From assembly GCA_035549015.1 (NCBI GenBank), contig DASZRW010000112.1:285-64284 (forward strand): DNA of 64,000 nucleotides, in the 5' to 3' direction. Position 1 is the first letter of the stretch; each line of letters opens with the position of its first letter. This DNA comes from Candidatus Kapaibacterium sp. GTDB taxonomy: Bacteria > Bacteroidota > Ignavibacteria > OLB7. Of this stretch, positions 7,294-52,679 are shown piece by piece. A program made the position numbers and the translations under genes. The notes beneath the pieces were generated by a model that worked only from the letters and a program-made list of their open reading frames with translations, ran no database searches and was not told the DNA's origin.

Positions 7294-11217
<3,924 letters not shown>

Positions 11218-25552: not shown

Positions 25553-28500
25553 TTACAGCGTGAAGATCACGTCGTCCAGATTCCGCAGACCGTAGGAGTT
25601 GGTCACCACCACCTTGTACCGATGGTACACCACGGCACCATCCACAAGCTTCGGAAGCGTTCCGGCATTGTACAGCATGGTGGGCGCCGTGGTTGGTGCG
25701 GCCACGAGCTTCCAGTTGCCGTTGCTCTGCATCTTGTAGAGCGCATAGGTGGACTGCACCGACGTAGCATACCAGGTCAGCACCACGTTGCGATACTCCG
25801 TGAGCGCGTTGTTCTGCAGCGGGTCATGGTAGGCATCGTATGTGGCATCGATTGCCGGCGGCACCGGGTTTGCGGAGTCCACCACATTGACCAGCACGAT
25901 CTCCGACGGGAGTGATTCGATCTCCTCGTTGCGCATCTGGCCAAGATGGAGGTAGCTCAACGGGCGCACGCCCGCAAGGCGATAGAAGATCGGCGAGCCG
26001 AACGGCGGATCGATATCGGCGAACAGATCCCGCACAATCCATCCCTCCAACGTCTGCGCCAGCGTTGCCACATCGAACGTGCCGACAAGCGTCATGGTTC
26101 GCGTGCTGGTTGCATCCGCTGCCGTGAGAGCACGATACAGCCGGATGGCAGTGATACCCTCGGCATCGGGATACGGCGTGACGGTGAAGTTCACGGACTG
26201 CTGCAGCCCGAAACCCTGCTGGGCCTCCGCCACGATCACATGACGAATCGCAGGAGCCGCGGATGGGGCTGCGTTCACCAGGCGTACGGGGCCAAGGATA
26301 TCGCTGACGGGACCAACGGCCAGTGTGTTCGAGATCTCGCGGGCACAGTAGAAGAAGATGTTCCGCGATGCTCCGTCCAGCGCGTAGTCCGTGAACCGGA
26401 TTGTTGTGCCGCTGGCCGTACGCCTCACCATCGGATAGGGATTGAAGCCCGGATCCTCCGCGGTGAGCAGTTCACCGTTGGCATCGCGTACCACGGGCTT
26501 CTGCGACGACGTGACGAGCGCATCGTCCACATCCACCAGGCTTGTCAGGATCGGACGCTCGGTAAGCGGCACCATCGCTCCGGCAATCACCTCGCGGATG
26601 TCATCCAGTGCCGAAGGGATCAGCCCCTGCGCCGGATCGCCCGGCAGACGCGACGGCACGAACGCCTTGCGATACGGCGTCGGGTGCGCGGGGTCGTCCG
26701 GGTCGGCCAGGTGCACGGGATCGAACAGCTCCGCGTCGGGATTGTCAGGCACGGGGAACGCGAAGCCGTTGTAGACCTTGAACCGGCGCGCGTTCGGGCC
26801 GGTGGTATCCACCACTCCCGTTACCAGCTCGCGCCACTGGCTGATGTAGGCGTCATCGTGCGCAACACTGTTCAGGTGCGGACGGATAACGTTGTCGATC
26901 GTATCCTGCTTGTAGAGCGCGCGCAGCACTGCCTCCTCGTCGCCCCGGTAGAACACCGCTCCGTACGGCGTCCGGTTTGCAGCCACCGGCATGTCCACGG
27001 AGCAGGATGACTTGCCGTAGAAGTCCGGGCGCGTTGCATAGGCTGGCCCCGAGAGAGCGAGCGGCTTCACCGGATCGGCAACGTTGTGCGCGATCTGCAC
27101 CGCAGCCGGCGTGAGCGACGATGTGTACCCCCGCGGGCTATCCATCGAGTAGGCGGCGATGTAGGTCTGCCGCGTGGGCGCATCGCCGGTCGGCATGATG
27201 TCCGATTCGGGTATGCCGCCGGCAAGCAGATCGATGTAGCCTCGATACGATGGATGGAAGTTCATCGGCACCGTGGCAAAGCCGGTGTGCGGGCCGATGG
27301 TGTCCGAAGGATCGAAGACGTAGATCGTGAACTTCCCCTGGTCCACCAGGAACTTGATTACCTGCACCGCCTTCATGCGTCCGGATGCGGCGGGATCGGG
27401 AACGCGCACCGTACCACGATAGAACTCCACGAACCATGGGTTGTTGGGGTACTGGACGTTGTAGTCAAAGAGCATGATCGTGGGGCAGGTGATCTTGTAC
27501 ACGCCCGGAGGCGCATCGATCGCCGGCGAGCCGGGTGGAACCGTTATCGTATCCACACGCTCGAGTCTGGCGGCCGGCTCGAACAGCCCGCCCACCGTCA
27601 ACGTTCTGCTCTGGCCGTTCTCCACGAGCTGCTCCGTATATACCGGTACCTGCGGATATGGCAAGCGCGTGAAGTCCGCCAGTTGTATGACGCTGCTCGG
27701 CAGAGCCCTCCACCGCGCGGTGTTCGCAAGGTTCTCAACCACCATGAACGTAGTGCCGGCCTTCGGAGGATCGTACGCCTCGGTCTTCTTCACTCCATTC
27801 TCGTCGGTGGTCTCCATCGGCGTCAGGTGGAACCGGGCGTAATTGTTGCCGGCGGCCGTCACCTCAACCACGATGAACCGATGCGTGCTGGTGGCGAAGA
27901 TGCTCCCCACGAACACCTGCTGCGATATCTGGCTCGAGGTCACGATCGGTTCCACGGTGATCGAGCCCTTCGATGGGTCTGCCGTGAGATCCGGATATGC
28001 ATCGGCCTCCACATACACATCGCCATTCCCGGAGATCGACTGCGGGTTCTTCACCACGCCGCGTATCGATACCGGCGCATCGGTACGGAAGAAGAACTGA
28101 ACACGGTCCGCACTCTGGTAGGCGATGTTGTGCACATGATTCCAGTCGAACAGCACGCGCGTCCGCTTGCCGTGGGTTGCGATCTGCGCCTGTTCCGACA
28201 GCGACGTGAGCACCGGTGGAACCTCGCGCTGGATGTACTGCACCGCGAGGTTCGCCGGCGGGAGAAGCGAATTGTACTTCGGGAAACTCGTCGTGATCGT
28301 GTTCGAATACACCCCAATCGCAGAGGCGCGCGAGAACCAGTTGATCCCGAAGATCCCGTACCTGCGAGCGAAGTCGTTCCCCGGCAGGTTCTCGATGCGA
28401 TGCACGAATACCGGGTTACCCGTGTCCGGAATGCCGTGCAGCTCGGGATGCCCGTCCTGATCGGCATACGGAACGTATCCACTCGGCTCGTACTCACCGA

Positions 28501-31500
28501 AGTCGTTCACGGGATATACCTGCCGCCAGTCGCTCGGAGAAGTGCCGTCCGGTTTGGTGATCCGGATGCCGAACTGCATCGGCTTCGTCGCCGTACCATG
28601 ACTGAACTCCGTGGTATCGGCAAAGAAGTCTCCAACGGGAAGGTCGATCGCCACCGTTCCACGATTCACGTTCAGATAGCGTGCATCGGCATAGCGTGTG
28701 TATCCCTGGGAGTCCGTGAAGTCCTCGTGCACCAACGGCTCGATGCTGGCGATCGTCACGGGTGCCGGCAGCCGGACGTCGCTCCGCCCGGTTGGAAGCG
28801 AGAGATAACGATGCGTCATCGCGGTGATGCGTTTCGCCGGGTCAGCCGGTGTCACATACTCGGCCATGTAGATATAGCGCTGTCCGGCGGCGTCGCCGGC
28901 AAGCGGCACATCCGGATCGATCATCCCGAGCCCAAGCATTCGTGCCACGTGGTAGTCCTGTGCGGCCAACAGCAGCATGCGGAGTGCACTGATGTTGATC
29001 GAGCCGCTGTCCGTGGACAACACGGGAGCCTGCGTCAGCCACGCCTCCACCTGAGCGGGATCGACACTCCTCTGCAGGTACGACTCCACCGCCGTGCGTA
29101 TGGACTGCTTTGGATCGCGCTCGAATGCCGGGCGTGAGGGATCGTACGTGGGATCTGCATGACCGTCCGGCAGATAGTGACGGTTGGGAAGCCACCGGTC
29201 CAGGTAGTTCACCACCTTCACCCGTGGGGCCTGGCCCTCCAACGTGTGCCCGTACTTCGGCCATGCTCCGTCCACGTTGAATCGCGTTGTATCCTCCAGG
29301 CGCCTGGCAGCCTCCGTGGTATCCAGTGTCAGCGCATAGTTCCCGATCTTCTTCCAGAGGTACCGGCGATGCGTGGCGGTATAGAAGTCCGCATAGGTTT
29401 CCACCAGCAACGCGCCAGGCGCCCCACCCGAATAGCGGAACCGGAAGTATTGCACGGCCTCGCTCATCACCTTGTGGCGGGTGCCATTCCCCACGAAGCG
29501 CCTGCGCGCGGAGATGAACAGCGGGGCAGCGGCCGCCGAGGGATCCTCGTTGAGCGATATCGCCTCCACACGCGTCGTCATCGCCGCAAGCGACGGCGAC
29601 GTGAGCTCGAACGCAAACATCAGGTTCAGGTCCGTCTCCACCTCCACCGTACCGGTGAAGTTCGCAACGATGTAGGCCACGTCCGCTCCAACGTTCTTCG
29701 GATCGGTCGGCGTGTTGTTCTGGCGCAGCGTCCGGTACGATCCGTCGTCGACAAACCGCAGCGTCAGCGTAACAACGGCCGAGGGGAACAACTGCCTGTC
29801 CACCTGAACGTTCGTATACGTCCAGGTCCAGACACCGCCGTCCTGCGAGACATCTGTGGGACGTTGCTGTGTGGTGGCGCTGAGATCGATCGTGGCCGGG
29901 AAGTACTTCGTTGTATCGGTATCCACGTAGCGCGTGCGATAGATCGCCACGTAATCGTCCGGCTTGTTGTACCCGTACGACGCGAAGTATGGGCTTCCCG
30001 GGCGTGTGTACGGTCCCTTCGGCAGATGACGATTCCCGAGGTCGTTCAGGAACGCCCAGCGCAGGTGCACGCCTCCGGCGCTGCCGTCGCCGCCGTTGTT
30101 GAATCCGTCGGAACCAACAGCCTGCAGGTAAAGGAACTGCGACTGGATGGTGTAGGCCTGCGTATCCTCCTCGCCGCATACATTGCGGCCGACTGCATAG
30201 AGCTTGCTGCGAAGCAGCACGGTTGCCTGGCGCAACTGATCGAGCACCGGGGCGAAGTATGCTACCACCGCGGCATCGGGCGAGCTGCAGCGCAGGCAGT
30301 AGGCGGTGAAGAAGCTGATCGCCACCCGCGCCCGCATGCAGGTTGTAGTGGCGCATGGATCGTCCGCGATCGGCAGGCCAAGCAGCACCGCCTTCGGGAT
30401 CACGAGCGCGTAGAGCGCATCGATCGCCGTACGCAGATCGCTTGGATTCCCCTCCACAAGGTTCACCAGGTCCGTTGCGCCGGCGCGTTCCTGGGCGCTC
30501 ATCCCTCCCACCATCGCACATGCCTTGCAGATGCATTCCAGCAGCTCCAGCCAGTCGTGGCGGAACGCCGTCATGGCCGTTTCCGGCCGCGGCAGGTCGT
30601 TGGCGATCGTGGCTGCGTATGCGGCCGACTGCGCCGCAAGCTGTGCATCCAGATAGTCCACAACCACGCGGGCCTGTGGGGCAAGCTCCTGATACCGTGA
30701 GAATGCCGTGGCCAGCAGGTCCACAACGAACTCCAGCCGGTTGCAGAAGGCGCCGCCGGGAAGCATGGTCTGCGTCAGCCGCAGATTCCGCGCGAGCGAT
30801 GCGATCTCCTGCTGCGTGCGCGTGAAGATGTCCTCCAACGCAATCACCGCCGGCGCACCGGAGGGGGGATCGACGCCGCAGAGCAGATCGGAGTAGCCAA
30901 CGAGACCGTGCAGGTGCGCGCAGATATCAACGGACTCCGCGCAGAACACGACGCCGGCCGCAGCCAGTTGGGCTGTCCACGTGGCATAATCGGCAATGAA
31001 CGTGGCGAGCCCGGAGTTCAGAAGCGTTGCCACGCCGCTCGGCATCGTGCGGCACGGTCCGCATGTCAGATGCAGTGTCCGCAGCACTTCGAAGAGCTTG
31101 TACGCATCGCCGGATGCCAGGCTGGAGGATGGAGCACCGGCGCCGGCTGGAGCGGGCGTGATTGCGTTGAAGAGTGCCGTGATCCGCGAGGAGAACAACG
31201 AGGTGAAGCTCGCCCGCAACGTCGAAGACAACTCGCCGAACCGTAGCGCCGCCACGTACAGGCACTCCAGTCTCCATATCCAGGAGGGGCAGGTGTCGGT
31301 GCAGGTGCCGGTGAACGTGGCGCCGAGCTGCGTGCGCAGACGGTCGTACTCGCCTCGGAGCTGCACGTACTGCGCTTCGAGCTGCGTGCGCTGCGCCGAG
31401 GGAATCGAAAGTCCGTACATGCACGCGAGGCCGAGGAATACCGTGGAGCGCCGAAGCAGCTCGCAGCAGTCCGTGGGGGGCGAGCCAGCGGCGCTCATGG

Positions 31501-34500
31501 GAATGGCGCTCGTATACGGACTCGTGGAGGCGGCCGCCAGCGTCTGATAGATGGCCATGATGTCATCGCAGATCACCGCGTCGAACTGCGTCAACGTTCC
31601 GGGATCGTTCCCCGAAGCCGGCCGGCGCAGCTTGCACAGCTTGCAGAGACAGACGAACAGCGCGAACCAGCGATCGCAGTCCACACAGCTCGCGGCGCAC
31701 GCTACCGGCTTCTCCGCGAGCTGCGGAGCGAGCGTGGCAAGGCTCGCGCAGACACGCGTGATGAAGCAGTCCAGCGACCGACGCACGTATGGGGAGACAC
31801 GGCGGCTGCCGGAGTACACCACCATCGCGAACCCGAACATCACGCGCAGACGCTCGCACAACGACGGGCCGGTGCCCGGAAGCACGCTGGCACCGATCCC
31901 GGTCTCGAGCTGGAGACGGGGCGTAAGCTGTTCGATGCAGGAAAGGCTGGCCTGGAGCTGAATCATCGCCGAGGTGGACCAGATCGAATCCCCCACCGGG
32001 ATATCCACGCAGCAGAGCATGCGGTACATGCGCGGGATCATCGTGAGCTTGTCGCAATCGGCATCAAAGGCCGCGCACGGATCGGAGACGGTGGTCCCCG
32101 CGTTGCAGCAGCTGTCGCTCATCAGACTCCCGGTGGCGCAGCTGATGCTGCCGTCGCCGCCGAAGAACATGTTCGTCGCATAGAGGTTGTGCACCTCGGC
32201 GCGAAGGCAGTGGCGTCCCGGACCGAGATAGAGGGCGATGTCGAACGTCTCGTTGTTGACCATGATCTGCGGCGCCACGGAGTGCACCAGCGTTCCGTCA
32301 ACGTAGATGTCTGCGTAGTCGTCCGCGAAGTACGTGAACGTGATGCGCACGTCGCTGGCGCGGCAGAGACAGAAGCAGCGCTCGAACATCGTTATGCCGA
32401 TGTGGCTGTCGGACGCGCTGGCGTTCAGGGAAATCCAATGCGAGCTCCCGATCACCGGTCGCGATGTACCGCTGGTCACCGTCACCGTAGCCTGCGCAGG
32501 ATTCTTCACCTGGTCATCCACCGTGGTCATCACCCACGGCGCCGTGCCGGTAGCGAGCGTCAACTGCGGTATCGTGCAGCTCGTGCCGCAGAACGGAAGG
32601 CCGTCGTACACATCCTGCACCTGATCCATCTGGGCCTGCAGGTAGGAAACAGTGCCGGAGTCCATGCTGTCGCAGCAGGCGCAGTGTGTTGCGAACCAGT
32701 CGAGCAGGCTTCGGTGAATGTAGGCCCAGCGGTCGATCCCCTGTGCCATGCCGGCAAGCGCCGGATCCGTGGTCACGGTGGTATAGGTCCCTTCCACCAA
32801 CGTTCCCACACCCGTGTTGATGGCGTTCACCGTCTCGGCATAGGTGGGATTCGTCACGTCCGTGTAATAGCGATCGTGATGGCTCACGATGCAGTCCAGC
32901 ACGACGATCCAGTCCTCGCAGAGCGTGTTGACGTTGGAGCAGAGCTCCGGATGCGCATTGTTGAAGGCCGCGTAGGCGTCTGCGAACGCATCCATGAGCG
33001 CATTGAGCGCTGCAAGAAGAATGGGATCGATGCTGCCATGCTCGCAGAGCGAACGGAGGCGTGAGAGAATGGCGGAGAGCTTGGCGCAGAGCATCGCAAA
33101 CGATGGAGTCGTGGCCGGCGGTGCGTAGAGGTTCGAGCCATCGTTGAGCAACCAGTCCAGCTGATCGATGATCGCCCCGAGATCGTCCACGAAGTCATCG
33201 ATCACATCCTGCGGCAGAATCGTCCGCTGGCCGCAATACTTCTTCAGGCAGCGAAGCTTCGGCAGCCAGTTGTCGCACCATCCTGAGGGAATGGAGGTGC
33301 TCGTGCTGCACAGGTTCGGATAGGCCGCCTGGAGCGCATCGACTGCGCTCTGCAACTGCTGCAGCAGGGTCTTCAGGGTGATCAACAGAATCGGATCGAC
33401 GCCGTTTGCGCAGTAGGTGGTGATGTCGCTCTGGATGGTGGAGACCTTCAGGCAGAACAACGCGATGTCATCCAGTTCCGCGGGATCGCTCCGCCCTGGA
33501 ACCGAGTGGTAGATGGCGTCGACGGCAGCGCCCAGCTTGTTGAGCACGGTGGTGCGCAGGTCGTCGGTAAGAATGGCCTTCTCCGAGCAGATGCGCGAGA
33601 GGCAGCCGAGGAGCGAGTTCCACGTGCTGCAATCGGTCATCGGAACCGTGTCCGCACAGATGTCGCCGTAGGTGGCCTTGACTCCCGTCATCGACGACTC
33701 CAACCCCACGAGCAGGTTGTCGAGCTGCGTACGGCGGTTGTGCGACCACGGGAAGAGCGCCTTTGTGCAGAGGAAGGTGAAGTATCCGTCCAAAGTCTGC
33801 ACCATCTGGCAGAGCTGGCTGATATCATGATTCAACTGCCCCACGGGCGGCCGCATATTCAGGAACGTATACGCCGAGGCGAGCTGCGCGTTCAGTGCCG
33901 TGTAGAGTGCGTTCTGCAGCGAGCCGGGGAGCGTCGCCCACTTGTCGCAGAGCTTCTTCAGGCAGTCCAGCAGATCGAGCCAGCGCTTGCAGTAATCCTT
34001 CTCCGGCGGCCGGCAGAGCGTAAGGCTCTCACCTTCCATCACATCGCTCAGCAGTTGCCGCTTGTCGTACAGCCGCGTATACCAGGGTTCGATCGTGGCG
34101 GCCCACGGCGGCAGCGTCAGACGGCTTGCGCCGCACACACGACACCACCAGGCCCAGAAGCTGACGATGTAGCTCAACCGGTCGCAGTCGCTCGAGGGCG
34201 CCGGCGAGATCCAGCCCGGCATTCCCTCGCCTACGGCAATTCCCTGGATCTGCGGGAAGAGGCTGTTCACATCGGCTGCGATGTTGCCGTCGTAGTAGGT
34301 GGTGACGTCCGAGGGAAGCGACGGGCGCCGCGCGCAGAACCGGCAGAAACAATCCAGCAGATCGCGCCAGCGCTTGCAGAGGTCCATGATCTGCGGATCG
34401 ATCACGAGATAGCTCACCGCCACCACGTTCTCGAACGCCTCCTCGTACGGCGAGGTGAAGTCCTCGATAGTATAGCGCTGCGCCCATGTCAACGTGCTCA

Positions 34501-35140
34501 TCGTGGCCATCGCCGCCATGGTGATATCGGTCACGTACTGCGACGTCTCCAACAGGGTCTGCCCGGTGGGGGCCGGGCTTGCTCCGATCGCCGTGGCAAC
34601 CCGCTCCAGCCTGGGCAGTTGCGTGTTGATCGTTGCCTGCAGCGTCGCCACCTCCGCGATACCCACGAAGTTGTTGATCTGCGCCACGCCCAGGCATAGC
34701 CAGCGATAGAAGTTCGAGTAGTTGTAGCGATTGCGGCACAGCCAGTCCGGATCGTAGGAAACCGGATAATCGCGGAAGTCCACCTGGAACGAAACGGAGA
34801 CGGAGCTCGATCCCGCCGGCCCGGACAACATCACCGTCATCGAATACTGCTGCGTGGGAGGCGCCGGCGGTATCGAATACGTGAGCGAGGCGGAACCGCT
34901 GGTTGGTGCCATCGGGTTGCCGCCGCTTATCTGCACATTCACCGGAAGCGACATCGATCCGAACGGTGGCGGATCGAGACCCTTCAGGTGATCGGCGAAC
35001 GTAACAGGAAGGCCCGGCGTCAGCATCGACGTCAGAGTCGTGATCTCCCCTCCGGCGTTGATGGTGATGGTGTACTGGCCGGGCGAGATATTACCGGGCG
35101 CCGTGATCGAAGTCAGCGAGAATAACGCTACCTGGCTCAT
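25553..35140 (-). CDS. giant leaderless protein (3195 aa) with ~9 copies of a novel Cys-containing helical repeat in its N-terminal half. The C-terminal half is beta-rich, of unknown fold, with an FN3-like end
   Basis: A single uninterrupted 9.6-kb ORF with protein-like composition. Repeats include CKRWRDLLDCFCRFC..PSLPSDV, CKRWLDLLDCLKKLC..ATLPGSL, CSTWNSLLGCLSRIC..AILTDDL, CDNWLPKLRCLKKYC..TILPQDV, CEDWIVVLDCIVSH, CDRWFALFVCLCKLC, CPSWIWRLECLY and HDWLELLECICKAC. No signal peptide, no recognisable catalytic motif. Confidence 0.8.
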   Translation of the reverse strand: MSQVALFSLTSITAPGNISPGQYTITINAGGEITTLTSMLTPGLPVTFADHLKGLDPPPFGSMSLPVNVQISGGNPMAPTSGSASLTYSIPPAPPTQQYSMTVMLSGPAGSSSVSVSFQVDFRDYPVSYDPDWLCRNRYNYSNFYRWLCLGVAQINNFVGIAEVATLQATINTQLPRLERVATAIGASPAPTGQTLLETSQYVTDITMAAMATMSTLTWAQRYTIEDFTSPYEEAFENVVAVSYLVIDPQIMDLCKRWRDLLDCFCRFCARRPSLPSDVTTYYDGNIAADVNSLFPQIQGIAVGEGMPGWISPAPSSDCDRLSYIVSFWAWWCRVCGASRLTLPPWAATIEPWYTRLYDKRQLLSDVMEGESLTLCRPPEKDYCKRWLDLLDCLKKLCDKWATLPGSLQNALYTALNAQLASAYTFLNMRPPVGQLNHDISQLCQMVQTLDGYFTFLCTKALFPWSHNRRTQLDNLLVGLESSMTGVKATYGDICADTVPMTDCSTWNSLLGCLSRICSEKAILTDDLRTTVLNKLGAAVDAIYHSVPGRSDPAELDDIALFCLKVSTIQSDITTYCANGVDPILLITLKTLLQQLQSAVDALQAAYPNLCSTSTSIPSGWCDNWLPKLRCLKKYCGQRTILPQDVIDDFVDDLGAIIDQLDWLLNDGSNLYAPPATTPSFAMLCAKLSAILSRLRSLCEHGSIDPILLAALNALMDAFADAYAAFNNAHPELCSNVNTLCEDWIVVLDCIVSHHDRYYTDVTNPTYAETVNAINTGVGTLVEGTYTTVTTDPALAGMAQGIDRWAYIHRSLLDWFATHCACCDSMDSGTVSYLQAQMDQVQDVYDGLPFCGTSCTIPQLTLATGTAPWVMTTVDDQVKNPAQATVTVTSGTSRPVIGSSHWISLNASASDSHIGITMFERCFCLCRASDVRITFTYFADDYADIYVDGTLVHSVAPQIMVNNETFDIALYLGPGRHCLRAEVHNLYATNMFFGGDGSISCATGSLMSDSCCNAGTTVSDPCAAFDADCDKLTMIPRMYRMLCCVDIPVGDSIWSTSAMIQLQASLSCIEQLTPRLQLETGIGASVLPGTGPSLCERLRVMFGFAMVVYSGSRRVSPYVRRSLDCFITRVCASLATLAPQLAEKPVACAASCVDCDRWFALFVCLCKLCKLRRPASGNDPGTLTQFDAVICDDIMAIYQTLAAASTSPYTSAIPMSAAGSPPTDCCELLRRSTVFLGLACMYGLSIPSAQRTQLEAQYVQLRGEYDRLRTQLGATFTGTCTDTCPSWIWRLECLYVAALRFGELSSTLRASFTSLFSSRITALFNAITPAPAGAGAPSSSLASGDAYKLFEVLRTLHLTCGPCRTMPSGVATLLNSGLATFIADYATWTAQLAAAGVVFCAESVDICAHLHGLVGYSDLLCGVDPPSGAPAVIALEDIFTRTQQEIASLARNLRLTQTMLPGGAFCNRLEFVVDLLATAFSRYQELAPQARVVVDYLDAQLAAQSAAYAATIANDLPRPETAMTAFRHDWLELLECICKACAMVGGMSAQERAGATDLVNLVEGNPSDLRTAIDALYALVIPKAVLLGLPIADDPCATTTCMRARVAISFFTAYCLRCSSPDAAVVAYFAPVLDQLRQATVLLRSKLYAVGRNVCGEEDTQAYTIQSQFLYLQAVGSDGFNNGGDGSAGGVHLRWAFLNDLGNRHLPKGPYTRPGSPYFASYGYNKPDDYVAIYRTRYVDTDTTKYFPATIDLSATTQQRPTDVSQDGGVWTWTYTNVQVDRQLFPSAVVTLTLRFVDDGSYRTLRQNNTPTDPKNVGADVAYIVANFTGTVEVETDLNLMFAFELTSPSLAAMTTRVEAISLNEDPSAAAAPLFISARRRFVGNGTRHKVMSEAVQYFRFRYSGGAPGALLVETYADFYTATHRRYLWKKIGNYALTLDTTEAARRLEDTTRFNVDGAWPKYGHTLEGQAPRVKVVNYLDRWLPNRHYLPDGHADPTYDPSRPAFERDPKQSIRTAVESYLQRSVDPAQVEAWLTQAPVLSTDSGSINISALRMLLLAAQDYHVARMLGLGMIDPDVPLAGDAAGQRYIYMAEYVTPADPAKRITAMTHRYLSLPTGRSDVRLPAPVTIASIEPLVHEDFTDSQGYTRYADARYLNVNRGTVAIDLPVGDFFADTTEFSHGTATKPMQFGIRITKPDGTSPSDWRQVYPVNDFGEYEPSGYVPYADQDGHPELHGIPDTGNPVFVHRIENLPGNDFARRYGIFGINWFSRASAIGVYSNTITTSFPKYNSLLPPANLAVQYIQREVPPVLTSLSEQAQIATHGKRTRVLFDWNHVHNIAYQSADRVQFFFRTDAPVSIRGVVKNPQSISGNGDVYVEADAYPDLTADPSKGSITVEPIVTSSQISQQVFVGSIFATSTHRFIVVEVTAAGNNYARFHLTPMETTDENGVKKTEAYDPPKAGTTFMVVENLANTARWRALPSSVIQLADFTRLPYPQVPVYTEQLVENGQSRTLTVGGLFEPAARLERVDTITVPPGSPAIDAPPGVYKITCPTIMLFDYNVQYPNNPWFVEFYRGTVRVPDPAASGRMKAVQVIKFLVDQGKFTIYVFDPSDTIGPHTGFATVPMNFHPSYRGYIDLLAGGIPESDIMPTGDAPTRQTYIAAYSMDSPRGYTSSLTPAAVQIAHNVADPVKPLALSGPAYATRPDFYGKSSCSVDMPVAANRTPYGAVFYRGDEEAVLRALYKQDTIDNVIRPHLNSVAHDDAYISQWRELVTGVVDTTGPNARRFKVYNGFAFPVPDNPDAELFDPVHLADPDDPAHPTPYRKAFVPSRLPGDPAQGLIPSALDDIREVIAGAMVPLTERPILTSLVDVDDALVTSSQKPVVRDANGELLTAEDPGFNPYPMVRRTASGTTIRFTDYALDGASRNIFFYCAREISNTLAVGPVSDILGPVRLVNAAPSAAPAIRHVIVAEAQQGFGLQQSVNFTVTPYPDAEGITAIRLYRALTAADATSTRTMTLVGTFDVATLAQTLEGWIVRDLFADIDPPFGSPIFYRLAGVRPLSYLHLGQMRNEEIESLPSEIVLVNVVDSANPVPPAIDATYDAYHDPLQNNALTEYRNVVLTWYATSVQSTYALYKMQSNGNWKLVAAPTTAPTMLYNAGTLPKLVDGAVVYHRYKVVVTNSYGLRNLDDVIFTL

Positions 35141-35361
35141 GTCGTTCTGTTGGGTTGCTGCACGTTGATGTGGTCGTACTTCGTACCGCCGGAAAAGCCG
35201 GCGGCATCGCGGCGTCCGAAGCGCACGGATGGTTCGCCAATGTGGCCGATGCCGAATGCTGCAGTGTTACGTGATGCCGGCCGAGTGGTTGATTACACGA
35301 GGTCTCGGAGCTGACCGGCACGGTGGCGCGCCGATGCCCCGGCGCGCCACCCACGGGTTGG

Positions 35362-43773: not shown

Positions 43774-43895
43774 CCTCGTGGCGGCCGGACCGGCACTTCG
43801 GGTCCGGCCGCCGGGAAATCGGATCCGAGCGTTCCTGTCTATCGTCGCTGCAAGGCCGGCAGGCAGGCCATTGCCGCATGGGGTTGCCGGGAACT

Positions 43896-46800
43896 CTAGA
43901 TCGCGTCCGCGATGACCTTGAGGATCTCGAGAACTTTTAATACGAGAGCACTTGTTTTGGATACATCGAGATCCTCCCCTGCCCCCTGAAGCATGGCAAC
44001 GTGCAAATGCCCGGTCCGGAGCGTCGGATTATCCCTGGTGCGCATCAATGCCACTCGGTAGAAGATCTCATTGGAATAGTAGTTCCCGCCGGAACCGGCA
44101 ATCGACATGATATTACCGGTGATGAGGTTGGGAGTCTTCAACCCCGTGACTTCATTCTCAACCAGCACACGATTGGTTCGGAGACGCTTTGTGGGGTCAT
44201 TAAAGTCCCACTTTACCGCGGCTTGCGGCTTCTGGTCGAAATCCACGTATTCGAAGGTCTGATTGAAATACAACCCCTGGACGATGGGCTGTCCTCCGCT
44301 CTGCGGGAACAGAGCATCATACGGCAGCGTCGTCTCGTAGAATTCCTTTCCGGCGGGATCGGGGGGAAACGCTTCATCCCTGACATTGTTGTTGTCCAAG
44401 ACGATGTGGGATCGATCTGTTCTGCCGCGGCACGGGAACCGATCGATCCAGTACTCACCAGGCCTTCCCTGACTTATCGTCACGATTGCATCCACATGAT
44501 GGTCGTCATCGACAGCCTGTATGTACGGTTCGAAGAAATTCTCGACCACCATGTTATTGAAATCATCAGCGCGAACCGGGAATATCGCCCCACGAATATC
44601 GAGCCGTTTTCCTCCCGGCGTGGTATAATTACGATTCATGAGGTTCAACACGGCTACGCCGGATGGATTGCTCTGCCGGATGTTCGAATATCCATGTATT
44701 GGCGTCAGGAAAAACGGATCGAATCCGGATATCAGGATGCGCTTGGCAGTTGTACTTCGTCCGACCGGCCATGCTGTACTCTGCGGCGAGAACCCGCGCG
44801 AACACCCCTCGAGGAAACTCAACAGGGCATCGATGTTTTTCGGACCGATATCCTTCAAGGCGGCACTCATCGCCAATCGCGCCCAGTAGAGCTGCCTGTC
44901 ATCGTACGTTGTATCCGCATTCCCTCGGACCGTTTCAAGGAGATCATAGGCTCGCTGCTTCACCGCATCGCGCATGTCATTGAAGGATGCCCCGGATGTT
45001 TCAAGCCCCTGGAGCGCCGTCGAGAACTGAGCGATTTTACTCTTGATGGCCGGCGTCAGAATATCGTTCTGCGGGATGGTCTCACTGACGTAGACATTCT
45101 CCTCGATTGAGCAGCCGGCATGCGGCTGCGGCGTCTGAGGCTCGACGGTTGCAAACGCCTGCGAGGTGAACAGCAGGCCATCGACGCTGTAGACGTAAAT
45201 ATCGCTGCCGGAGGCAGGAAAGACCGTCAACTGCAGGTGGCGCCCGGTAACGGCCGTATCAATTCCCGTCCCCCAGCCTCGCACACCAAGCCGATATTTC
45301 TGGCAACCTTCTCCGATAGCCCCAACGGGATCGAGAACGATATATCGGGCATGATGCGGACTGAATCCGGCAAGGGCGGCAAGTGCATCGTGCTGAGCCT
45401 GCGTAAGGCCCAGTGCAAGAATGTTCTTGCGTGACAACGAAGGTGTGGACGGAATGTCCACCAGCTGAAACGTCTTTACGGCCGTCCCGTCCGTGATCTC
45501 CTGTTCCACCAACAACAGATGCCCGAGCTGCTGCACCAGAACCTGCAGGAAACTCTTCGGCCCGCTCGTACTGTTTACCGAACCGCCCGGTAGCTGAGCT
45601 ATCTGCGGTGGTGTCATGCCGATCGCCGGCACGTAGTCGGTGGCGATCGCGAAGTGTACCACGTTCGCCGCTCCCGATTCGAACGCAATCCCTCGCTCGC
45701 TCACCGTCGCAACTTCCACTCCAGCCACCGCACCGGCTCCGACAAACGTTCGATCGCCCATCGAATTCCACGTTACGGCATTCGATGTTCCTGCACCCGA
45801 GGCCGGTATTGCCCACTGCGACGTTGCAGAGAGCGGCCCGAACACGAAGTTGGTGTACTCCCCAACAGATGGAAGCGGCACCGAGTCCGGAGAGAGCGGG
45901 AGGAAGATGGGCGTATCTGATTGCCTGAAATAGTGGATCCGAACCAGCCCGCCAATATTGATGCGGTTCCCCGGCGTGGCCGCCTGCCGGTTGGGAACCG
46001 CGAGCGCCACCGGCTGCGTCCATTCCACATTTGCTCCCGTGCCAAGCATGTTTTCATCGAGGATCCGGCCAACAACTGCGCGGGATGCAATGACCGCGCC
46101 ATCCACGTGCATCAGCGGCTTGTGGTTGTCTTCAATCCGGAGCTTGAGATAGAACGCATTCATCGCCTCCGCTGTGGTTGCCGTCACGGTTGTTGCGATA
46201 ATCGGCCAGCCACCCGAGCCATAGACCGACTGGGCCATCGTGGCGCCGGGTGCAAGGCCGAACTGAAGATTGTTCCGTTCGGCGCCGGTTACATCGTGCC
46301 CATAGTTGCCGTAGTAGTCGTACGCGTAGCCCGCCTCGTTGCGAATGTCGATGTAGAGCGTATCGCACGTGTGGAAGCGCGAAAGCAGGTCCGTGTAGAG
46401 ATACTCCTCCTTCTTCGGCGGAAATGGAATCGCATGCATATACACGCCTGCATAGTAATGCATGGCATAGTATGTGGCAGGATCGATATAGCGGTGGATC
46501 TCCTCGCGCCTGAACTGGAGTTCCAACGGATCAGTCACCTTTGAAAGATCGATCTCGTACACCGGCTGCCGCACGTAGTCCAGCGTGAGATCGGAGGCGT
46601 CGTTGTCCAGAACGATCTCGAAGCCGATGCGATTGGCATCGAAGTGCCCGAGAAGCATACCGCGATCCGCCACCGCAAGCTGGAATCCCGATGTGGGCGT
46701 CACCGATGAATCCACATGGAAGAACAGACTGTCCAGCGTGGTGGTTCCCGCCTGACTGGGATCCCAGCCGAGCACCTTCGCAAGAACGGGGTTGCTGGGG

Positions 46801-49800
46801 TTGATGTGAAGCGCCGCCGCCATGGCAGCATCAGCGGTATATATTGCCTGGATGAACTGCGTAGCTCCTGCCGAGGGGACGAGATTCGTTTCCGTAGCGC
46901 CGAGGAAGTCGGATTTGCGAAGGCCACGATAGACGAAGTACTTCACCGTGAACGATCCCATCGCCGTCTGCTCGATCGGCCTCAGCACCAGGTTGACGTG
47001 ATCGTTGTCCACCTTCTGAATGATCACGGTTCCACGAGTAGCGGCATAGGCCTCGACATCCGAGGATGTGCTGCTGACGAAGGAACTGGTAACGCGGAAC
47101 TTCGTGAGGCCCTTCGGGCCGAATGCATCATCGGGCACCTGATTCCTGACGCTCGCCATGTTGGCAAACTCGTGGAGCTTCGAGAGCGGCTTCTGGCTGC
47201 GAAGCTGGGTCTCCGACGGCACTCCCTCGAGCGCAGCCACCGAGACGGTATGCACCTTCTCGACACGCAGGCTGGCACCGGATCCGATACGCGCGGTAAT
47301 CGCAATCGTACTGCCGTTCTGCGCATTGGATAGTGTAAGGTTTCCGAGGAACGTTGCGGAGTTCGTTGAACCGGCCGCGGGCGAACTCGTTATCGTGGCC
47401 CATGTCACTGCCTGCGTGAAGCACCATACTCCCGCATAGTGATATGTGGTGCTTTCGGTGGTCCCGTCCGCCGCGGTGCGGACAAAATCAATGGAGACAT
47501 CGGGCGAACTGAAGGTTTTTACATCGACGGCTGTGATGGTGAAGGAAGTGGTAACCACTGTGCCGATTGCATCCACCTGGACCGCATCCGGCAGAACCTC
47601 GCCGCTGTTTCCGTTGAGGCCGATGTCCGCAAAGTTCAGTTTGCGATAGGTGATATTGTTGTTGTGCCCGGCGTCGGCACCGTTCATGGCACCGTCGTGC
47701 GGGCTTACATCCACCAGCAGGTACAGATCGCCGGCTGTCGTAAATCCCGACGTTGGCGGTGCCGGCCACGAGATGTTCGCCAGGTAGGTATTGCTGGCCG
47801 TAGGATCGCCTGTTGGTGCAATGACGCCGGCGGGGATTTTCGTCTCTCCCAGCAGATAGGAGCCATGGCCGCCGGTGCTGTACAATCGATTGATATCCGT
47901 GCTGAGTCCGGTGACGGAATCCACCTTGTCGTACGGAAAATCCGTGGGGAACTGGAACGCCGGATTGGCGCCGTCGGCCAGGTGAGCAATGAAGAACCGG
48001 ACAACCGCCGGCAGATTGTACAGCCCGGTTGGATCCGTATCGTTCGCTCCCATGTACACACCGCGATTGGTAATTCGTGCGCAAATCCACTTGGGATTGT
48101 CGAACACCGGAACCTGATATGGGCCCGGCTGGGTGTAGGGAACGGTGTTTGCAGCAACATCCGTTGTTGGATCGGCAATGCGCAGCCACAGATCGGGGCT
48201 GTCGATCGTATTCGATGGAGACGTTCCCGTATCGCTGAGGTTATCCCGGATCATCAGGTCGCGCAGGTCATTGCTGAAGTCGAGCGCCATCCCCACCGCA
48301 CGGTCGGCATTGATACGGCCATAGCCGTAGAAGTGATTGAAGTCCGGAATCCGTCCCCCCTTCACCGGCGTTGTCGCCGGATGCGTTCCCTTCAACCCGC
48401 GATCCACGATCATCCGCGTAGCGCTCTCGATGGAGAGGATGTACCGAATCTCCGCGTTCGTTCCGGTGTTGATCTGTATCGCCTGTCCCGCAACGAAGCT
48501 GAGCGTGGAAACAACATCGATGGTAGCACCGGAAACGGCTGTGATCGTTGTCCACCCGCATTCCACGGTGGAGTTCGCCGCGTGACTGTGCGCCAGCGCA
48601 CGATCCAGCCGTACGACATTGGCCCCAACGATCGCCTTGACAATTGCGCGTTCGGGAGTATGCGCGGAATCGATTCGAAGGGCATGCCCGACTGTGTACT
48701 GCGAGGCATCCGCGACATGAATTTCCGTATCCCCGACGCCGAGGGCGTCGACGATCACGTCGTTGCTGACACTCTCGAGAACCAACAACGTACTTCCACC
48801 AACCACCTCGATCACCGGATTATTGTTGCGATCGAACCATTTCCCGGCGCCGGGAGCGGAACTGTTTTCCGGCTGCCCTGTTCCGGTGTTCAGGAGATCG
48901 ATCTTGTCTGCCGACCGGCGAAGAATATCACGCGCCTCCCAGAAGGTAAGCCGTGAGGTATTGGTCTGCGGATCGATCTGTGCCGACAGCACCAGAGCGG
49001 CAACGCCGGCTGCCAGCGGGCAGGACATCGAGGTGCCTCCGTAGCCATTGGAGTACGATGGTGTGCCGCCAACCACCGTGGATCCTATCCCATGGGTGAA
49101 CTGCAGATGGTCGTTGATACTGATCTGGGTGGGGGAGGTAACGTTGGAATCGATGAGTTCTCCATCGGCACCATCCGCGGTCGCCGCAAATGCTCCGTTC
49201 TTTCCATCGACGGAATGGACATTCGTTTTTCCTGCCGCGTCGATCATCAATCCCTGCCCCTTCCAGAATCCCGCCGTGCACTCCACCGTGATCGAGCCAT
49301 CGCCGTGATTACCGATTGCCGTAAGCGTTGTAGCCAGTGTTGCGGACCCCTTCGGTCCCCCCAGGAAATAGATGTGCGTCGGCGAGAGGAAGCTGCTGCT
49401 GAAGACCGCATCGATTGCCGCCGTCAGCGTGAGCTGGTTGCCGGATCCATTGGCCGCGAGCTGACGGATTTTGCATGTGGACTGCGCAGGATCACCAACC
49501 AGAATCCATTGATCCTTGAAGAAGCCATCGCTCGAACCCACATGAAGCACCGTGTCCGTTGCAACGGTATCCTGCGAGAGATTGGTCATCGACTTCGAAA
49601 GTGCACGCACCCGTACTCCGCACCCCAGCGCCGCCCCAACCGCCTCGTTCAATTCGATCCGGCGCCCCGAGAATACCGTCTTCACCGTATGCAGAGCATT
49701 GGGCCCTGGATCGCCGATCATGATCGTTTGATCGGGAACGAATCCGGTTGCGTGTTCCAGTCCGATAATGGTGTCGGTACTGAGTGTGGCCACCCATATC

Positions 49801-51701
49801 GTGGTATCGACATATCCGGCATCGGCCGCCATTATCCCTTCCTGCACGCAGGCCGTGGTAATGCCTCGCCAGTAGCTGAGCGGAGTATTCCTCTTTGGAC
49901 TTCCATACGATCCGTTATCGCAGGGAGCACAGATCTCGAGTCCCTGCCGGGCGTCGGCAATGGAGGAATAACTGGCTGATGTCGACAACCGCTCAACCAG
50001 GCTTCCATCGTGGTCCACACTCTCCACATTGAGTGAGGCTCCTCCCACCCCCACCACTTCATCCTCGAAGCAGATTCGCTGCTCGTCCCGCACGAGGTGC
50101 GAGCTTGCATTTCGGTCTCCCACGGCAAAGAGAACAAGCCCGCCGCGACCGGCACGCCCGTAGCGGGCCACGATCTGCAACGCCCGCTGCGTCCCGTCTG
50201 TGACCGTATACCCCAGCGCGTCCCATTGGTAGCTGTTAGTACAGATATCCGCGGACGGCACGTTGGAGAGCGAGGAGAGGGCCGGCGGGAGGTCGCTGTA
50301 GGCACGTCCGGATGGGAACGAAGCCCAGAGGGTGGTGCTCCACGTGAACGAGTAGCCGAACATCCACTGAAAAGTCTCCGCCTTCGAATTCTGGCTTTCC
50401 GCGCGCAGCACAACAAGCGCGCGGGAATTTCCGGCTACGCCGGCCGTTCCCTGCCCGTCGTTGGTGGACGCAGCGATCAGCCCCAACGCCTGCGTGCCAT
50501 GCTGGCGGTAAATCTCGTCGCTACCGGAATTACCGGGCCACGGCGAAACATGGTGATCCGGATAGAAGCGGGTGAAGTCATAGTAGTATGCGATGCGCGG
50601 GCTTCCTCCGGTAACGTTCCCAAGCAACGCCGGATGCCGGGGAACAGTCAGCCCCGAATCGATGTCCACTTCGGACTCGGTTCCGAAATCGACTGCAGCA
50701 ACGCAGATGTGCTCGCTGCCGAACGTGATATCGCCGGCACTTCCCAACGAGACGCCTGCCGCTGTCCTCAACCGCTGCCACGCCTTCGCCACCTGCATGA
50801 CGCGAAGATGCCACTGGTCCGGATAGAGCGTATCGGGATTGGTCAACGAGAGATCGCTGACCGGCGCGAACAACGGGAGGTCGCGCGTGGAACTCACTCC
50901 CTGTTCCGCGCGCTCCACCAGGCCGGAGTCCACAAGCATGCGGCAGAGCGCAAGTGCCGTGGTATCGGGCACCACGCGAACCAGGACGTGGCCCGGATTG
51001 GAGGAAGGCCGTGCGATGAGCGGAAGCCCATGCTGCTGCAGAAGAATGTCAACCGCATCGGCGTTCAGGTCCGCGCGGAACCAGAGCATGAGCTGGTCGC
51101 CGAGATACGACACCCCGTGCGTATCGTGCTCCACCACCAATGCCGCCGATGCGATCGGCTCCTCCGCACGCAGTCGCTGGAGGACTGCCGGGAGTTCATC
51201 ACCTGAAACGGTGGCGGAGGTCCGCCCAAGCACCAGCGGTCGCAACCGGGTTTCGGAGTCCATGTCGAGTTCGATGCCGACGGAGGCAGCCGCAGCAGCC
51301 AGTTCCGCCTGGGTTGCCTCGGGAGCCGGCATCACCACGACTTCGGGCTTCGCCGCCAGGTGCACCGGCCTGCGCATGGTACCGGCGTACACGTAAAAAT
51401 CGCCCGGCACGCCCAGGTGAACATATTCGTCGGAAGCACCGGCGCCGATACGAATCGTCCGCTGCTCGGATTCGAATCCACCGCACTCCACGCTCATACG
51501 GTAGACGCCGGGCGCAATACCTTCGAAGATCCAGCTTCCGGCAATCCGTTCCGCCGTATCCGGCAATGGACCCGACACGGTCTGCTGAGATGAATCGCTG
51601 CTCTCGTAAACGCGTTGCAACGCGACGGCGGCATCGGTGAGCGGCGTAAATCCACCGTCGCAAATATGTACGCTCAGCTTGGCGGTGCTCAAGGGTGTCA
51701 T
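43896..51701 (-). CDS. giant leaderless multidomain protease (2601 aa): N-terminal carboxypeptidase-regulatory-like domain, subtilisin-like S8 peptidase domain with large insertions, long beta-rich middle, C-terminal pyroglutamyl-peptidase (C15)-like domain
   Basis: CarbopepD_reg-like segment GSWIFEGIAPGVYRMSVECGGFESEQRTIRI. S8 motifs DQWHLRVMQVAKAW, ...AAVDFG..., HGTQALGLIAASTNDGQGTAGVAGNSRAL (His box), GTSMSCPLAAGVAALVLSA (Ser box). C15-like segment KRILISGFDPF...NPSG...GRPGEYWIDRFPCRG...SGGNYYSNEIFY...TGHLHVAM. Confidence 0.85.
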   Translation of the reverse strand: MTPLSTAKLSVHICDGGFTPLTDAAVALQRVYESSDSSQQTVSGPLPDTAERIAGSWIFEGIAPGVYRMSVECGGFESEQRTIRIGAGASDEYVHLGVPGDFYVYAGTMRRPVHLAAKPEVVVMPAPEATQAELAAAAASVGIELDMDSETRLRPLVLGRTSATVSGDELPAVLQRLRAEEPIASAALVVEHDTHGVSYLGDQLMLWFRADLNADAVDILLQQHGLPLIARPSSNPGHVLVRVVPDTTALALCRMLVDSGLVERAEQGVSSTRDLPLFAPVSDLSLTNPDTLYPDQWHLRVMQVAKAWQRLRTAAGVSLGSAGDITFGSEHICVAAVDFGTESEVDIDSGLTVPRHPALLGNVTGGSPRIAYYYDFTRFYPDHHVSPWPGNSGSDEIYRQHGTQALGLIAASTNDGQGTAGVAGNSRALVVLRAESQNSKAETFQWMFGYSFTWSTTLWASFPSGRAYSDLPPALSSLSNVPSADICTNSYQWDALGYTVTDGTQRALQIVARYGRAGRGGLVLFAVGDRNASSHLVRDEQRICFEDEVVGVGGASLNVESVDHDGSLVERLSTSASYSSIADARQGLEICAPCDNGSYGSPKRNTPLSYWRGITTACVQEGIMAADAGYVDTTIWVATLSTDTIIGLEHATGFVPDQTIMIGDPGPNALHTVKTVFSGRRIELNEAVGAALGCGVRVRALSKSMTNLSQDTVATDTVLHVGSSDGFFKDQWILVGDPAQSTCKIRQLAANGSGNQLTLTAAIDAVFSSSFLSPTHIYFLGGPKGSATLATTLTAIGNHGDGSITVECTAGFWKGQGLMIDAAGKTNVHSVDGKNGAFAATADGADGELIDSNVTSPTQISINDHLQFTHGIGSTVVGGTPSYSNGYGGTSMSCPLAAGVAALVLSAQIDPQTNTSRLTFWEARDILRRSADKIDLLNTGTGQPENSSAPGAGKWFDRNNNPVIEVVGGSTLLVLESVSNDVIVDALGVGDTEIHVADASQYTVGHALRIDSAHTPERAIVKAIVGANVVRLDRALAHSHAANSTVECGWTTITAVSGATIDVVSTLSFVAGQAIQINTGTNAEIRYILSIESATRMIVDRGLKGTHPATTPVKGGRIPDFNHFYGYGRINADRAVGMALDFSNDLRDLMIRDNLSDTGTSPSNTIDSPDLWLRIADPTTDVAANTVPYTQPGPYQVPVFDNPKWICARITNRGVYMGANDTDPTGLYNLPAVVRFFIAHLADGANPAFQFPTDFPYDKVDSVTGLSTDINRLYSTGGHGSYLLGETKIPAGVIAPTGDPTASNTYLANISWPAPPTSGFTTAGDLYLLVDVSPHDGAMNGADAGHNNNITYRKLNFADIGLNGNSGEVLPDAVQVDAIGTVVTTSFTITAVDVKTFSSPDVSIDFVRTAADGTTESTTYHYAGVWCFTQAVTWATITSSPAAGSTNSATFLGNLTLSNAQNGSTIAITARIGSGASLRVEKVHTVSVAALEGVPSETQLRSQKPLSKLHEFANMASVRNQVPDDAFGPKGLTKFRVTSSFVSSTSSDVEAYAATRGTVIIQKVDNDHVNLVLRPIEQTAMGSFTVKYFVYRGLRKSDFLGATETNLVPSAGATQFIQAIYTADAAMAAALHINPSNPVLAKVLGWDPSQAGTTTLDSLFFHVDSSVTPTSGFQLAVADRGMLLGHFDANRIGFEIVLDNDASDLTLDYVRQPVYEIDLSKVTDPLELQFRREEIHRYIDPATYYAMHYYAGVYMHAIPFPPKKEEYLYTDLLSRFHTCDTLYIDIRNEAGYAYDYYGNYGHDVTGAERNNLQFGLAPGATMAQSVYGSGGWPIIATTVTATTAEAMNAFYLKLRIEDNHKPLMHVDGAVIASRAVVGRILDENMLGTGANVEWTQPVALAVPNRQAATPGNRINIGGLVRIHYFRQSDTPIFLPLSPDSVPLPSVGEYTNFVFGPLSATSQWAIPASGAGTSNAVTWNSMGDRTFVGAGAVAGVEVATVSERGIAFESGAANVVHFAIATDYVPAIGMTPPQIAQLPGGSVNSTSGPKSFLQVLVQQLGHLLLVEQEITDGTAVKTFQLVDIPSTPSLSRKNILALGLTQAQHDALAALAGFSPHHARYIVLDPVGAIGEGCQKYRLGVRGWGTGIDTAVTGRHLQLTVFPASGSDIYVYSVDGLLFTSQAFATVEPQTPQPHAGCSIEENVYVSETIPQNDILTPAIKSKIAQFSTALQGLETSGASFNDMRDAVKQRAYDLLETVRGNADTTYDDRQLYWARLAMSAALKDIGPKNIDALLSFLEGCSRGFSPQSTAWPVGRSTTAKRILISGFDPFFLTPIHGYSNIRQSNPSGVAVLNLMNRNYTTPGGKRLDIRGAIFPVRADDFNNMVVENFFEPYIQAVDDDHHVDAIVTISQGRPGEYWIDRFPCRGRTDRSHIVLDNNNVRDEAFPPDPAGKEFYETTLPYDALFPQSGGQPIVQGLYFNQTFEYVDFDQKPQAAVKWDFNDPTKRLRTNRVLVENEVTGLKTPNLITGNIMSIAGSGGNYYSNEIFYRVALMRTRDNPTLRTGHLHVAMLQGAGEDLDVSKTSALVLKVLEILKVIADAI

Positions 51702-52061: not shown

Positions 52062-52679
52062 TCAGAAGCGCGGTGTAACGTCCTCGAAAATCTCCAGCGA
52101 GATTGTTTCAACGATTCCGGCATCGGTAAGGATACGCGCCTTGTCCACGATCCCCTCTCCGATATCCTTACCGAACGAGACACCGTACCGGCGTGGATTA
52201 TGTTCATCCACTTCGAAGCCGGCAGGTGTCAGCATCCGCACTGCAGATCTGCACGCGTCGGGCGTCACGGACGATTTGAACACCACGCTGAACGATGTCG
52301 CGAATATCCCGATATCCCGACCGCGGGAGATCCGAACGATCGGACCATAGTGGTAATCCGACTGTGTACGCAGGGCCAGGAGCTCCGGTGCATGCAGGCG
52401 ATCGAACGGTTTTCCGTCGCGTCGCCGCACGATACGCATGGAGGTTGCCGCATCGCCCGAAAGGTATTTGCTGCCAACATCTTCCAGGCCCAGGCTGTCG
52501 AGCAGGCGCCGAAGGCGAACCGCACCGCTCCCCGCCGGAGACATATTGGTGGCCAACAGATATGGGAAGGAACGATATTCCCGCATCGATGTGTTATCCG
52601 GATATTCCGCGCGAATTCCCGATTCCACGGAGAAGAAACAACCGCTCATCGCCAATGCTGCCGTCATGATCAGGAGCAT
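52062..52679 (-). CDS. hypothetical lipoprotein (206 aa) immediately upstream of, and co-oriented with, the giant-gene cluster
   Basis: Lipoprotein signal MLLIMTAALAMSGC starts at ATG 52679 (Met29 of the listed ORF). A 360-nt gap separates it from the first giant gene. Confidence 0.55.
   Translation of the reverse strand: MLLIMTAALAMSGCFFSVESGIRAEYPDNTSMREYRSFPYLLATNMSPAGSGAVRLRRLLDSLGLEDVGSKYLSGDAATSMRIVRRRDGKPFDRLHAPELLALRTQSDYHYGPIVRISRGRDIGIFATSFSVVFKSSVTPDACRSAVRMLTPAGFEVDEHNPRRYGVSFGKDIGEGIVDKARILTDAGIVETISLEIFEDVTPRF

Follow-up and report, generated by a model that had tools for sequence, protein, structure and literature searches.

A conserved operon of giant proteins without secretion signals as a candidate toxin-delivery system

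The toxin complex (Tc, or ABC) toxins of Photorhabdus, Xenorhabdus and Yersinia are encoded by operons of several giant genes whose products lack signal peptides, and they pair an invariant large machinery with an enzymatic payload that can be exchanged. Extracellular contractile injection systems (eCIS), which include the antifeeding prophage (Afp), Photorhabdus virulence cassettes (PVC) and metamorphosis-associated contractile structures (MACs), are, like tailocins, signal-free particles with variable fibre genes (Collar, Peptidase_S74) and associated toxins. Polymorphic toxin systems (Zhang/Aravind) and the umbrella particles of Streptomyces carry variable enzymes on a conserved carrier, together with adjacent variable small genes such as SUKH-like arrays and target-binding accessory proteins. 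We analyzed positions 25553-52679 of a 64,000-nt stretch of DNA from Candidatus Kapaibacterium sp. (contig DASZRW010000112.1; this whole stretch is called the window, and all coordinates refer to it). Three consecutive genes there encode giant proteins, here named G1, G2 and G3. Judging from genomic context, the chance that they form an undescribed toxin-delivery complex free of secretion signals is, in our estimate, a little below even (about 0.45).

Taken together with its relatives, the operon resembles these systems in the traits listed above, including, for Tc toxins, the logic of release and target binding. Scans against Pfam and NCBIfam at E<=0.1 gave no TcA-type domain (VRP1, TcdA/TcdB pore, TcA_TcB_BD) in G1-G3, and the RHS-repeat cocoon of TcB/TcC (SpvB, TcdB_mid, RHS core) was not found. 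A toxin with a DUF4157/eCIS_core domain is encoded 3 kb away, but the window holds no eCIS structural gene, and neither the scanned window genes nor the flanks of relatives, which were judged from precomputed Pfam, include a gene for a sheath, tube, gp25, baseplate J, VgrG, PAAR or AAA ATPase. For multifunctional autoprocessing repeats-in-toxin (MARTX/RTX) proteins, neither Pfam nor NCBIfam matched RTX nonapeptide repeats, a C80 cysteine protease domain (CPD) or type 1 secretion genes. The sequence-only reading, an earlier inspection of this DNA, had seen no RHS, RTX, VgrG, PAAR or eCIS signature in the giants, and Pfam, NCBIfam and PHROGs agree. Polymorphic toxins differ in that the carrier domains here are not among the known trafficking domains, two ~2000-aa giants without an assigned fold are the invariant partners, and the window has no recognizable immunity gene beside the enzymes; its one candidate is a non-conserved lipoprotein upstream of G1, whereas relatives show variable enzymes and SUKH-like arrays. 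By analogy, then, the operon would work like Tc toxins, eCIS and polymorphic toxins, yet it fails the testable defining features of each. At the sequence level, the family assignments that hold are Peptidase S8 for one domain of G1 and, by transitivity, DUF6603 for G2, and no others.

An invariant core and its variable partners

We compared 89 fetched loci by tblastn with pieces of the window proteins and by clustering of open reading frames (ORFs). The N-terminal and C-terminal parts of G2 were found by tblastn in 87 and 88 of the 89 loci, respectively, and the core of G3 (aa 1600-3195) in 84. The middle module of G1 (aa 1500-1870) was present in 64 loci, the G1 subtilisin (S8) part in 12, the G1 C15-like part in 15 and the cysteine-rich repeats of G2 and G3 in 9-10. 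ORF clustering placed a G2-like protein in 85 loci and a G3-like protein in 81. The invariant core thus consists of G2 and G3, with G1 as the member that varies. The genes follow one another on the same strand, with a G1-like gene (700-2900 aa), then a G2-like gene (median 2120 aa), then a G3-like gene (median 1844 aa), and a median G2-G3 gap of 21 nt. Between the G1-like and G2-like genes there is sometimes a gene for a ~1000-1200-aa protein, and often one or more small genes.

This conserved synteny supports the earlier suggestion of an undescribed giant-protein system, and the toxin-like gene context supports in outline its suggested toxin-like nature. The roles that had been assigned, with a protease processing giant cargo, are reversed, because G2 and G3 are invariant and the protease-bearing G1 varies. 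Since the S8 part occurs in only 12 loci and the C15-like part in 15, the protease is unlikely to be the processing enzyme of the system.

G2 has homologues of ~2000 aa in Longimicrobium, Saprospiraceae, Mucilaginibacter and Flavobacterium. When one genome per species was scanned, the genomes of at least 209 species contained a G2 relative; these are mainly Bacteroidota (many genera) and Acidobacteriota, with some Kapaibacteriota and a few other groups. An exhaustive phmmer search with G2 recovered 997 clusters (50% identity) at E<=1e-3, of which 494 reached E<=1e-30.

The enzymes on or beside G1-like proteins vary among loci. In addition to S8 and C15-like domains, relatives carry, on or beside G1-like proteins, the phosphoesterase/phospholipase C family PF04185, a lipase of the platelet-activating factor acetylhydrolase (PAF-AH) type or a PG_binding_1 protein, and some have a phospholipase D enzyme as a neighbour. 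The gene directly upstream of the G2-like gene is hypervariable among relatives. All four tested members of one cluster of small proteins matched SUKH-1/SMI1_KNR4 over the full profile length (E 4e-4 to 0.04); this SUKH-like family occurs in two or three tandem copies, and another small family in four. These arrays resemble the immunity-gene arrays of polymorphic toxin loci. Arrays of two to four small paralogues between the enzyme-bearing and G2-like genes are seen at loci L024, L026, L060, L066 and L087. Many of the other genes upstream of the G2-like gene are ORFs with signal peptides or lipoproteins. Searched as HMMs, neither the ~1000-aa accessory family (cluster 3) nor the ~1230-aa one (cluster 10) matched G1, and two accessory proteins of relatives had no match among PDB sequences. 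The C-terminal third of cluster 3 is slightly less conserved than the rest, which is weak support, confounded by taxonomy, for a polymorphic tip.

Downstream, a tightly linked, same-strand hypervariable gene follows the G3-like gene in 45 of 67 evaluable loci. Among the scanned downstream genes, Peptidase_S74 chaperone domains occur in 5-6 loci, phage tail Collar domains in 3 (one also with Gp10_C), BppL_N in 1 and DUF5977 in ~6; others have an fn3 (fibronectin type III) domain (L001) or weak DUF1565 matches. In all, tail-fibre-type genes lie downstream of G3-like genes in ~15 relatives; the window has none.

We also examined export signals. No transmembrane-like window was found in G1-G3 by Kyte-Doolittle analysis, and N-terminal hydrophobic segments are almost absent from ~80 homologues of each of the three proteins, in a test in which lipoproteins from the same loci, used as controls, gave clear scores. 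The missing signal peptides are a family-wide property. A signal peptide masked by a wrong start codon was considered and rejected, as the N-termini of the families are conserved and non-hydrophobic. Each listed ORF, moreover, starts from the earliest start codon available past the upstream stop, which excludes a hidden signal peptide. The lack of signal peptides noted earlier thus survives correction of the start codons, which reveals no Sec signal.

A gene for a lipoprotein-like ORF lies at 52062..52763 on the minus strand. Its product of 233 aa (220 aa in public annotation) has a hydrophobic segment followed by the lipobox-like motif AMSGC, and its end is 360 nt upstream of G1, as had been described. 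Conservation of this gene together with the trio had been proposed as a check. The order of G1-, G2- and G3-like genes recurs, but the lipoprotein sequence was matched by tblastn, among the 89 loci, only in its own genome. Relatives with an S8-type G1-like gene repeatedly have a gene for a non-homologous exported protein of 230-340 aa at this same upstream position, and the window lipoprotein belongs to this set. It is a candidate for an exported protein with an immunity or accessory role.

A second type of operon was also recovered, on one metagenome contig and on Mycetohabitans megaplasmids, in which a distant G3 relative is followed by a phospholipase D (PLD) enzyme and then a DUF6603 giant. 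The G3 profile is collinear with the large partner of this operon type (E=2e-10 and 3e-8). Examples lie at 8741-21762 of L091 (a Mycetohabitans endofungorum plasmid) and 1064-14795 of L009. In Mycetohabitans, which are fungal endosymbionts, the megaplasmid operon is surrounded by transposases and toxin-antitoxin genes.

A possible delivery complex and competing explanations

A model that accommodates these data is that G1, G2 and G3 form one multi-protein complex that would be made in the cytoplasm without secretion signals, act outside the producer and deliver enzymes into or onto other cells. G2, with its large antiparallel beta-sheet or barrel region, and the fn3-rich G3 would be the invariant structural and translocation machinery. 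G1 would be an exchangeable payload, docked to this core through a module resembling PA0049_N; in this genome the payload would consist of the zymogen-like subtilisin of G1 and a serine-variant C15-like hydrolase. The upstream lipoprotein may protect the envelope of the producer. In most relatives, target binding would fall to the product of the hypervariable tail-fibre-like gene that comes after the G3-like gene; here, the cysteine-rich repeat arrays of G2 and G3, perhaps stabilized by disulfides outside the cell, may replace the missing fibre. Release could occur by lysis or by another route. We infer complex formation, export, the target, docking, immunity through the lipoprotein and the role of the repeats. 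An extracellular toxin-delivery complex is suggested by the combination of invariant machinery, variable enzymes, immunity-like genes, fibre genes, fn3 domains and absent signals, and the models, which predict a barrel-like beta meander in G2 and fn3 domains in G3, are in keeping with it.

Several results weigh against such a complex. No recognizable secretion, lysis or pore module is present in the window, and the window locus has neither an immunity-like gene between G1 and G2 nor a fibre gene after G3, the latter being true also of the lineage that carries the cysteine repeats. Fibre-type domains were recognized in only ~15 of the 67 evaluable loci, and the SUKH matches fall below the Pfam gathering score. 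We found no paper describing the operon, and the literature on DUF6603, PA0049 and DUF5977 yielded nothing relevant. Finally, the lack of signal peptides and transmembrane segments suits an intracellular role equally well.

That last point leads to intracellular defense against phages or mobile elements, with G2 and G3 as giant sensors or scaffolds and the variable enzymes as effectors of abortive infection. The absence of both signal peptides and transmembrane helices, effector-like enzymes (protease, PLD, lipase) that differ among loci, the location of some relatives on mobile elements or beside toxin-antitoxin genes and a distribution that is patchy across phyla would all fit. We consider defense unlikely, as no PADLOC match was obtained at E<=0.1, Pfam and NCBIfam revealed no NTPase or nuclease sensor domains, the tail-fibre-type genes and SUKH-like tandem arrays of the operon are foreign to known defense systems, and the fn3 arrays and cysteine-rich repeats indicate an extracellular setting. 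Such a setting, together with giant size and the CarboxypepD_reg-like N-terminus of G1, could also be that of a cell-surface adhesin, S-layer or matrix complex that is exported by an unrecognized route and matured by the G1 protease. This is the least probable of the explanations that we considered, as the proteins have no Sec signal, type IX secretion system (T9SS) C-terminal domain or anchor, and an adhesin would not be expected to have immunity-like genes or partners of the lipase or PLD type; moreover, a protease present in only 12 of 89 loci is not a general maturation factor.

The fibre-type genes downstream in relatives raise another possibility, that the operon derives, as a remnant or as a module, from a phage or tail-like particle (a tailocin or eCIS relative) in which G2 and G3 are giant proteins of the baseplate or tail tip and the remaining structural genes lie elsewhere. 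On a Haloferax plasmid, a G2-like gene is followed two genes later by a Baseplate_J protein, and Foldseek searches against viral models return fn3-rich tail proteins. However, these Foldseek matches are driven by fn3 and have TM-scores of only 0.05-0.10, there is no PHROGs match, no flank inspected holds a sheath, tube, gp25 or VgrG gene, and hhalign found no match between the G3 profile and the Baseplate_J protein of Haloferax. We judge a tail-derived module to be improbable, more so than defense. A phage origin was itself rejected, as tblastn found no match in 50,697 phage genomes and IMG/VR contained no relative. The Haloferax operon, which is archaeal (L092, Haloferax mediterranei pHME322, 12805-25918) encodes a G2-like protein of 1858 aa, a 1370-aa protein and a 1142-aa protein. 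The last of these has a true Baseplate_J domain (E=2e-12), while the G3 profile matches the 1370-aa protein weakly (hhalign E=0.0027, probability 11%). This operon is the only hint of a family link to phage baseplates.

A broader proposal, which we hold tentatively and lean slightly against rather than for, is that G1, G2 and G3, together with the fibre-like protein of relatives, may constitute an unrecognized class of non-contractile, signal-free toxin-delivery particle. This class would have a wide distribution in Bacteroidota, Acidobacteriota and a number of further phyla, and its core of two giants, one DUF6603 and beta-barrel-like and the other rich in fn3, would be unrelated to Tc, RHS, eCIS, type VI secretion system (T6SS) or any other delivery machinery described so far. 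If true, bacteria would possess a new family of machines for protein delivery in which both the payloads and the receptor-binding fibres can be exchanged. Their interest, in microbial ecology and for programmable delivery, would be akin to that of Tc toxins, eCIS and umbrella particles, and Pfam DUF6603 and ~1000 clusters of giant "hypothetical proteins" would gain a function. Since the carriers include culturable soil and marine Pedobacter, Mucilaginibacter, Chryseobacterium, Tenacibaculum and Aquimarina, the proposal is directly testable. Even if the function were another, such as defense, a conserved three-gene operon of ~20-26 kb without a characterized homologue is a significant annotation gap.

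Architecture of the giant proteins and their operon

G1 (43896..51701, 2601 aa), G2 (35362..43773, a 2803-aa ORF) and G3 (25553..35140, 3195 aa) are uninterrupted ORFs, all on the minus strand, as are the domains and spacer elements described below. The gaps of 122 nt (G1-G2) and 221 nt (G2-G3) confirm the head-to-tail arrangement with short spacing that had been reported. NCBI starts G2 at Met25 (43701), giving a protein of 2779 aa, and this start agrees with the N-terminal consensus of the G2 family. The true start is probably at 43701, in which case the G1-G2 gap is probably 194 nt. Reading of the sequence revealed a GC-rich hairpin in each spacer, at 43780..43812 (G1-G2) and 35322..35351 (G2-G3), both perfect, with stems of 11-12 bp and without a T tract. 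Since the G2-G3 spacer of relatives is only ~21 nt, long hairpin-bearing spacers are peculiar to this genome. An assembly chimera, another concern raised earlier, was ruled out by an independent Logan assembly (SRR12170517), in which the gene order is identical.

G1 is the variable, enzyme-bearing and cargo-like component. Its N-terminus is CarboxypepD_reg-like and is followed by a subtilisin domain (48909..50843, aa ~287-931) that scores 36.7 bits against Peptidase_S8 (PF00082), for which the Pfam cut-off is 21.8. Alignment to mirolase (8ehe) showed that the catalytic triad is intact and in subtilase order, with D337 (VAAVDFG), H401 (HGT) and the serine of GTSMSCP, and that the catalytic domain holds an insertion of ~300 aa between the Asn and Ser regions. 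By sequence, this domain belongs to Peptidase S8 (subtilases).

The PA0049_N-like module of G1 (46104..47192, aa ~1504-1866) is the sole part of the protein common to most loci. PF27118 matches it weakly in precomputed data and matches G1 homologues fully. This module is a candidate adaptor of G1 to the G2/G3 core.

The C-terminal domain of G1 (43899..44804, aa ~2300-2601) resembles the pyroglutamyl-peptidase fold of family C15. The evidence is a weak match to NCBIfam PRK13197 (E=0.065) and a weak match of Pfam Peptidase_C15 to a Flavobacterium homologue of G1; PDB sequence searches with the C-terminal half of G1, as a single sequence and as family profiles, returned nothing. Alignment to a pyroglutamyl peptidase I (PGP-I) reference sequence suggests that GFDPF and GHLHV are kept, that Ser stands in place of the nucleophilic Cys and Asp in place of the Glu, and that the His is retained, so that the Glu-Cys-His triad is not present. 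In relatives, aligned to the same reference, the domain has Ser plus His, or Pro or Gln without the His. Because both the nucleophilic Cys and the Glu are replaced, the fold may be called C15-like, but the domain is no canonical cysteine peptidase. Of the two domains first noted in G1, the subtilisin holds, scoring above its cut-off with an intact triad, whereas the C15-like domain is weakly matched and has lost its catalytic Cys to Ser.

G2 and G3 match no characterized family in Pfam, NCBIfam, PADLOC, PHROGs or PDB sequences, and PDB searches with both single sequences and family profiles found nothing; the full-length match to a well-described family that would have made these giants ordinary was thus absent for both. 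The structure models of the two proteins come from shallow alignments (27-40 sequences) and indicate fold class only.

The DUF6603-like region of G2 (40711..42951, aa ~275-1021) is predicted to consist of ~45 long antiparallel beta-strands. G2 itself fails to reach E=0.1 against DUF6603 (PF20248), but homologues at 22-31% identity (P0027 and P0037-P0039) exceed the gathering score over aa ~400-1010. The A2 profile matched annotated DUF6603 proteins at E=1e-227, and NCBI names a Mycetohabitans relative "DUF6603 domain-containing protein". As its homologues match the family, G2 is, by transitivity, probably a divergent member. DUF6603 is a family of uncharacterized function, so this membership explains nothing. 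G2 also contains an insertion of repeats with a Cys/Trp motif (36964..39576, aa ~1400-2270), which is lineage-specific and lacking in most homologues, and a conserved C-terminal region (35365..36948, aa 2276-2803) with invariant columns.

In G3, an array of ~120-aa units with the same type of motif (30191..34753, aa ~130-1650; 4.6% Cys; 10 loci only) forms a lineage-specific N-terminal extension to the conserved core (25556..30148, aa 1665-3195), which contains several fn3-like beta-sandwich domains.

G2 and G3 had been described as paralogues through a novel helical repeat rich in cysteines. The similarity is real (BLASTP E=4e-11) and consists of ~11 copies of a ~120-aa unit around the motif C..W..LL.C...C. 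Cysteines are concentrated in aa 1200-2400 of G2 and aa 100-1700 of G3, and the enrichment is confined to the repeat arrays. The conserved cores of the two proteins, however, are not paralogous. The repeats are an insertion specific to a small Kapabacteria-related lineage that comprises the window and loci L004, L010, L011, L048, L061 and L081. Their composition is rich in Ala and Leu, which is compatible with the inferred helical nature of the repeat.

Other genes in the window

Upstream of the trio, a gene at 53140-54852 (minus strand) encodes a protein of 570 aa that starts with a signal-like segment and whose C-terminus has the look of a candidate T9SS sorting domain; if it is one, it would bear out the earlier remark on the use of Sec/T9SS signals by this genome. 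Farther away, at 7294-11358 (minus strand), is a gene for a Sortilin-Vps10/BNR-repeat protein of 1354 aa, whose N-terminal domain is LolA-like. Two large minus-strand ORFs near it (809 and 729 aa in public annotation) had no family match.

A metallophosphoesterase gene at 23401-25173 (plus strand) converges on G3. In a Pyrinomonadaceae locus (L059, 23387-25573), the G3-like gene is closely followed, on its own strand, by a gene for a protein with Metallophos and lamin-tail domains; as a possible counterpart of the window metallophosphoesterase, it may be a coincidence or an accessory gene. Beyond the metallophosphoesterase gene lies a polymorphic toxin of 1190 aa (18983-22555, minus strand) with a DUF4157 domain, now called eCIS_core, and a C-terminal Colicin-DNase/WHH nuclease domain. 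The presence of this toxin across a convergent gene had been correctly noted; it is a separate polymorphic toxin, and a link to the giants is not supported. A 147-aa ORF that directly follows it (~18543-18986, minus strand) is a candidate immunity gene.

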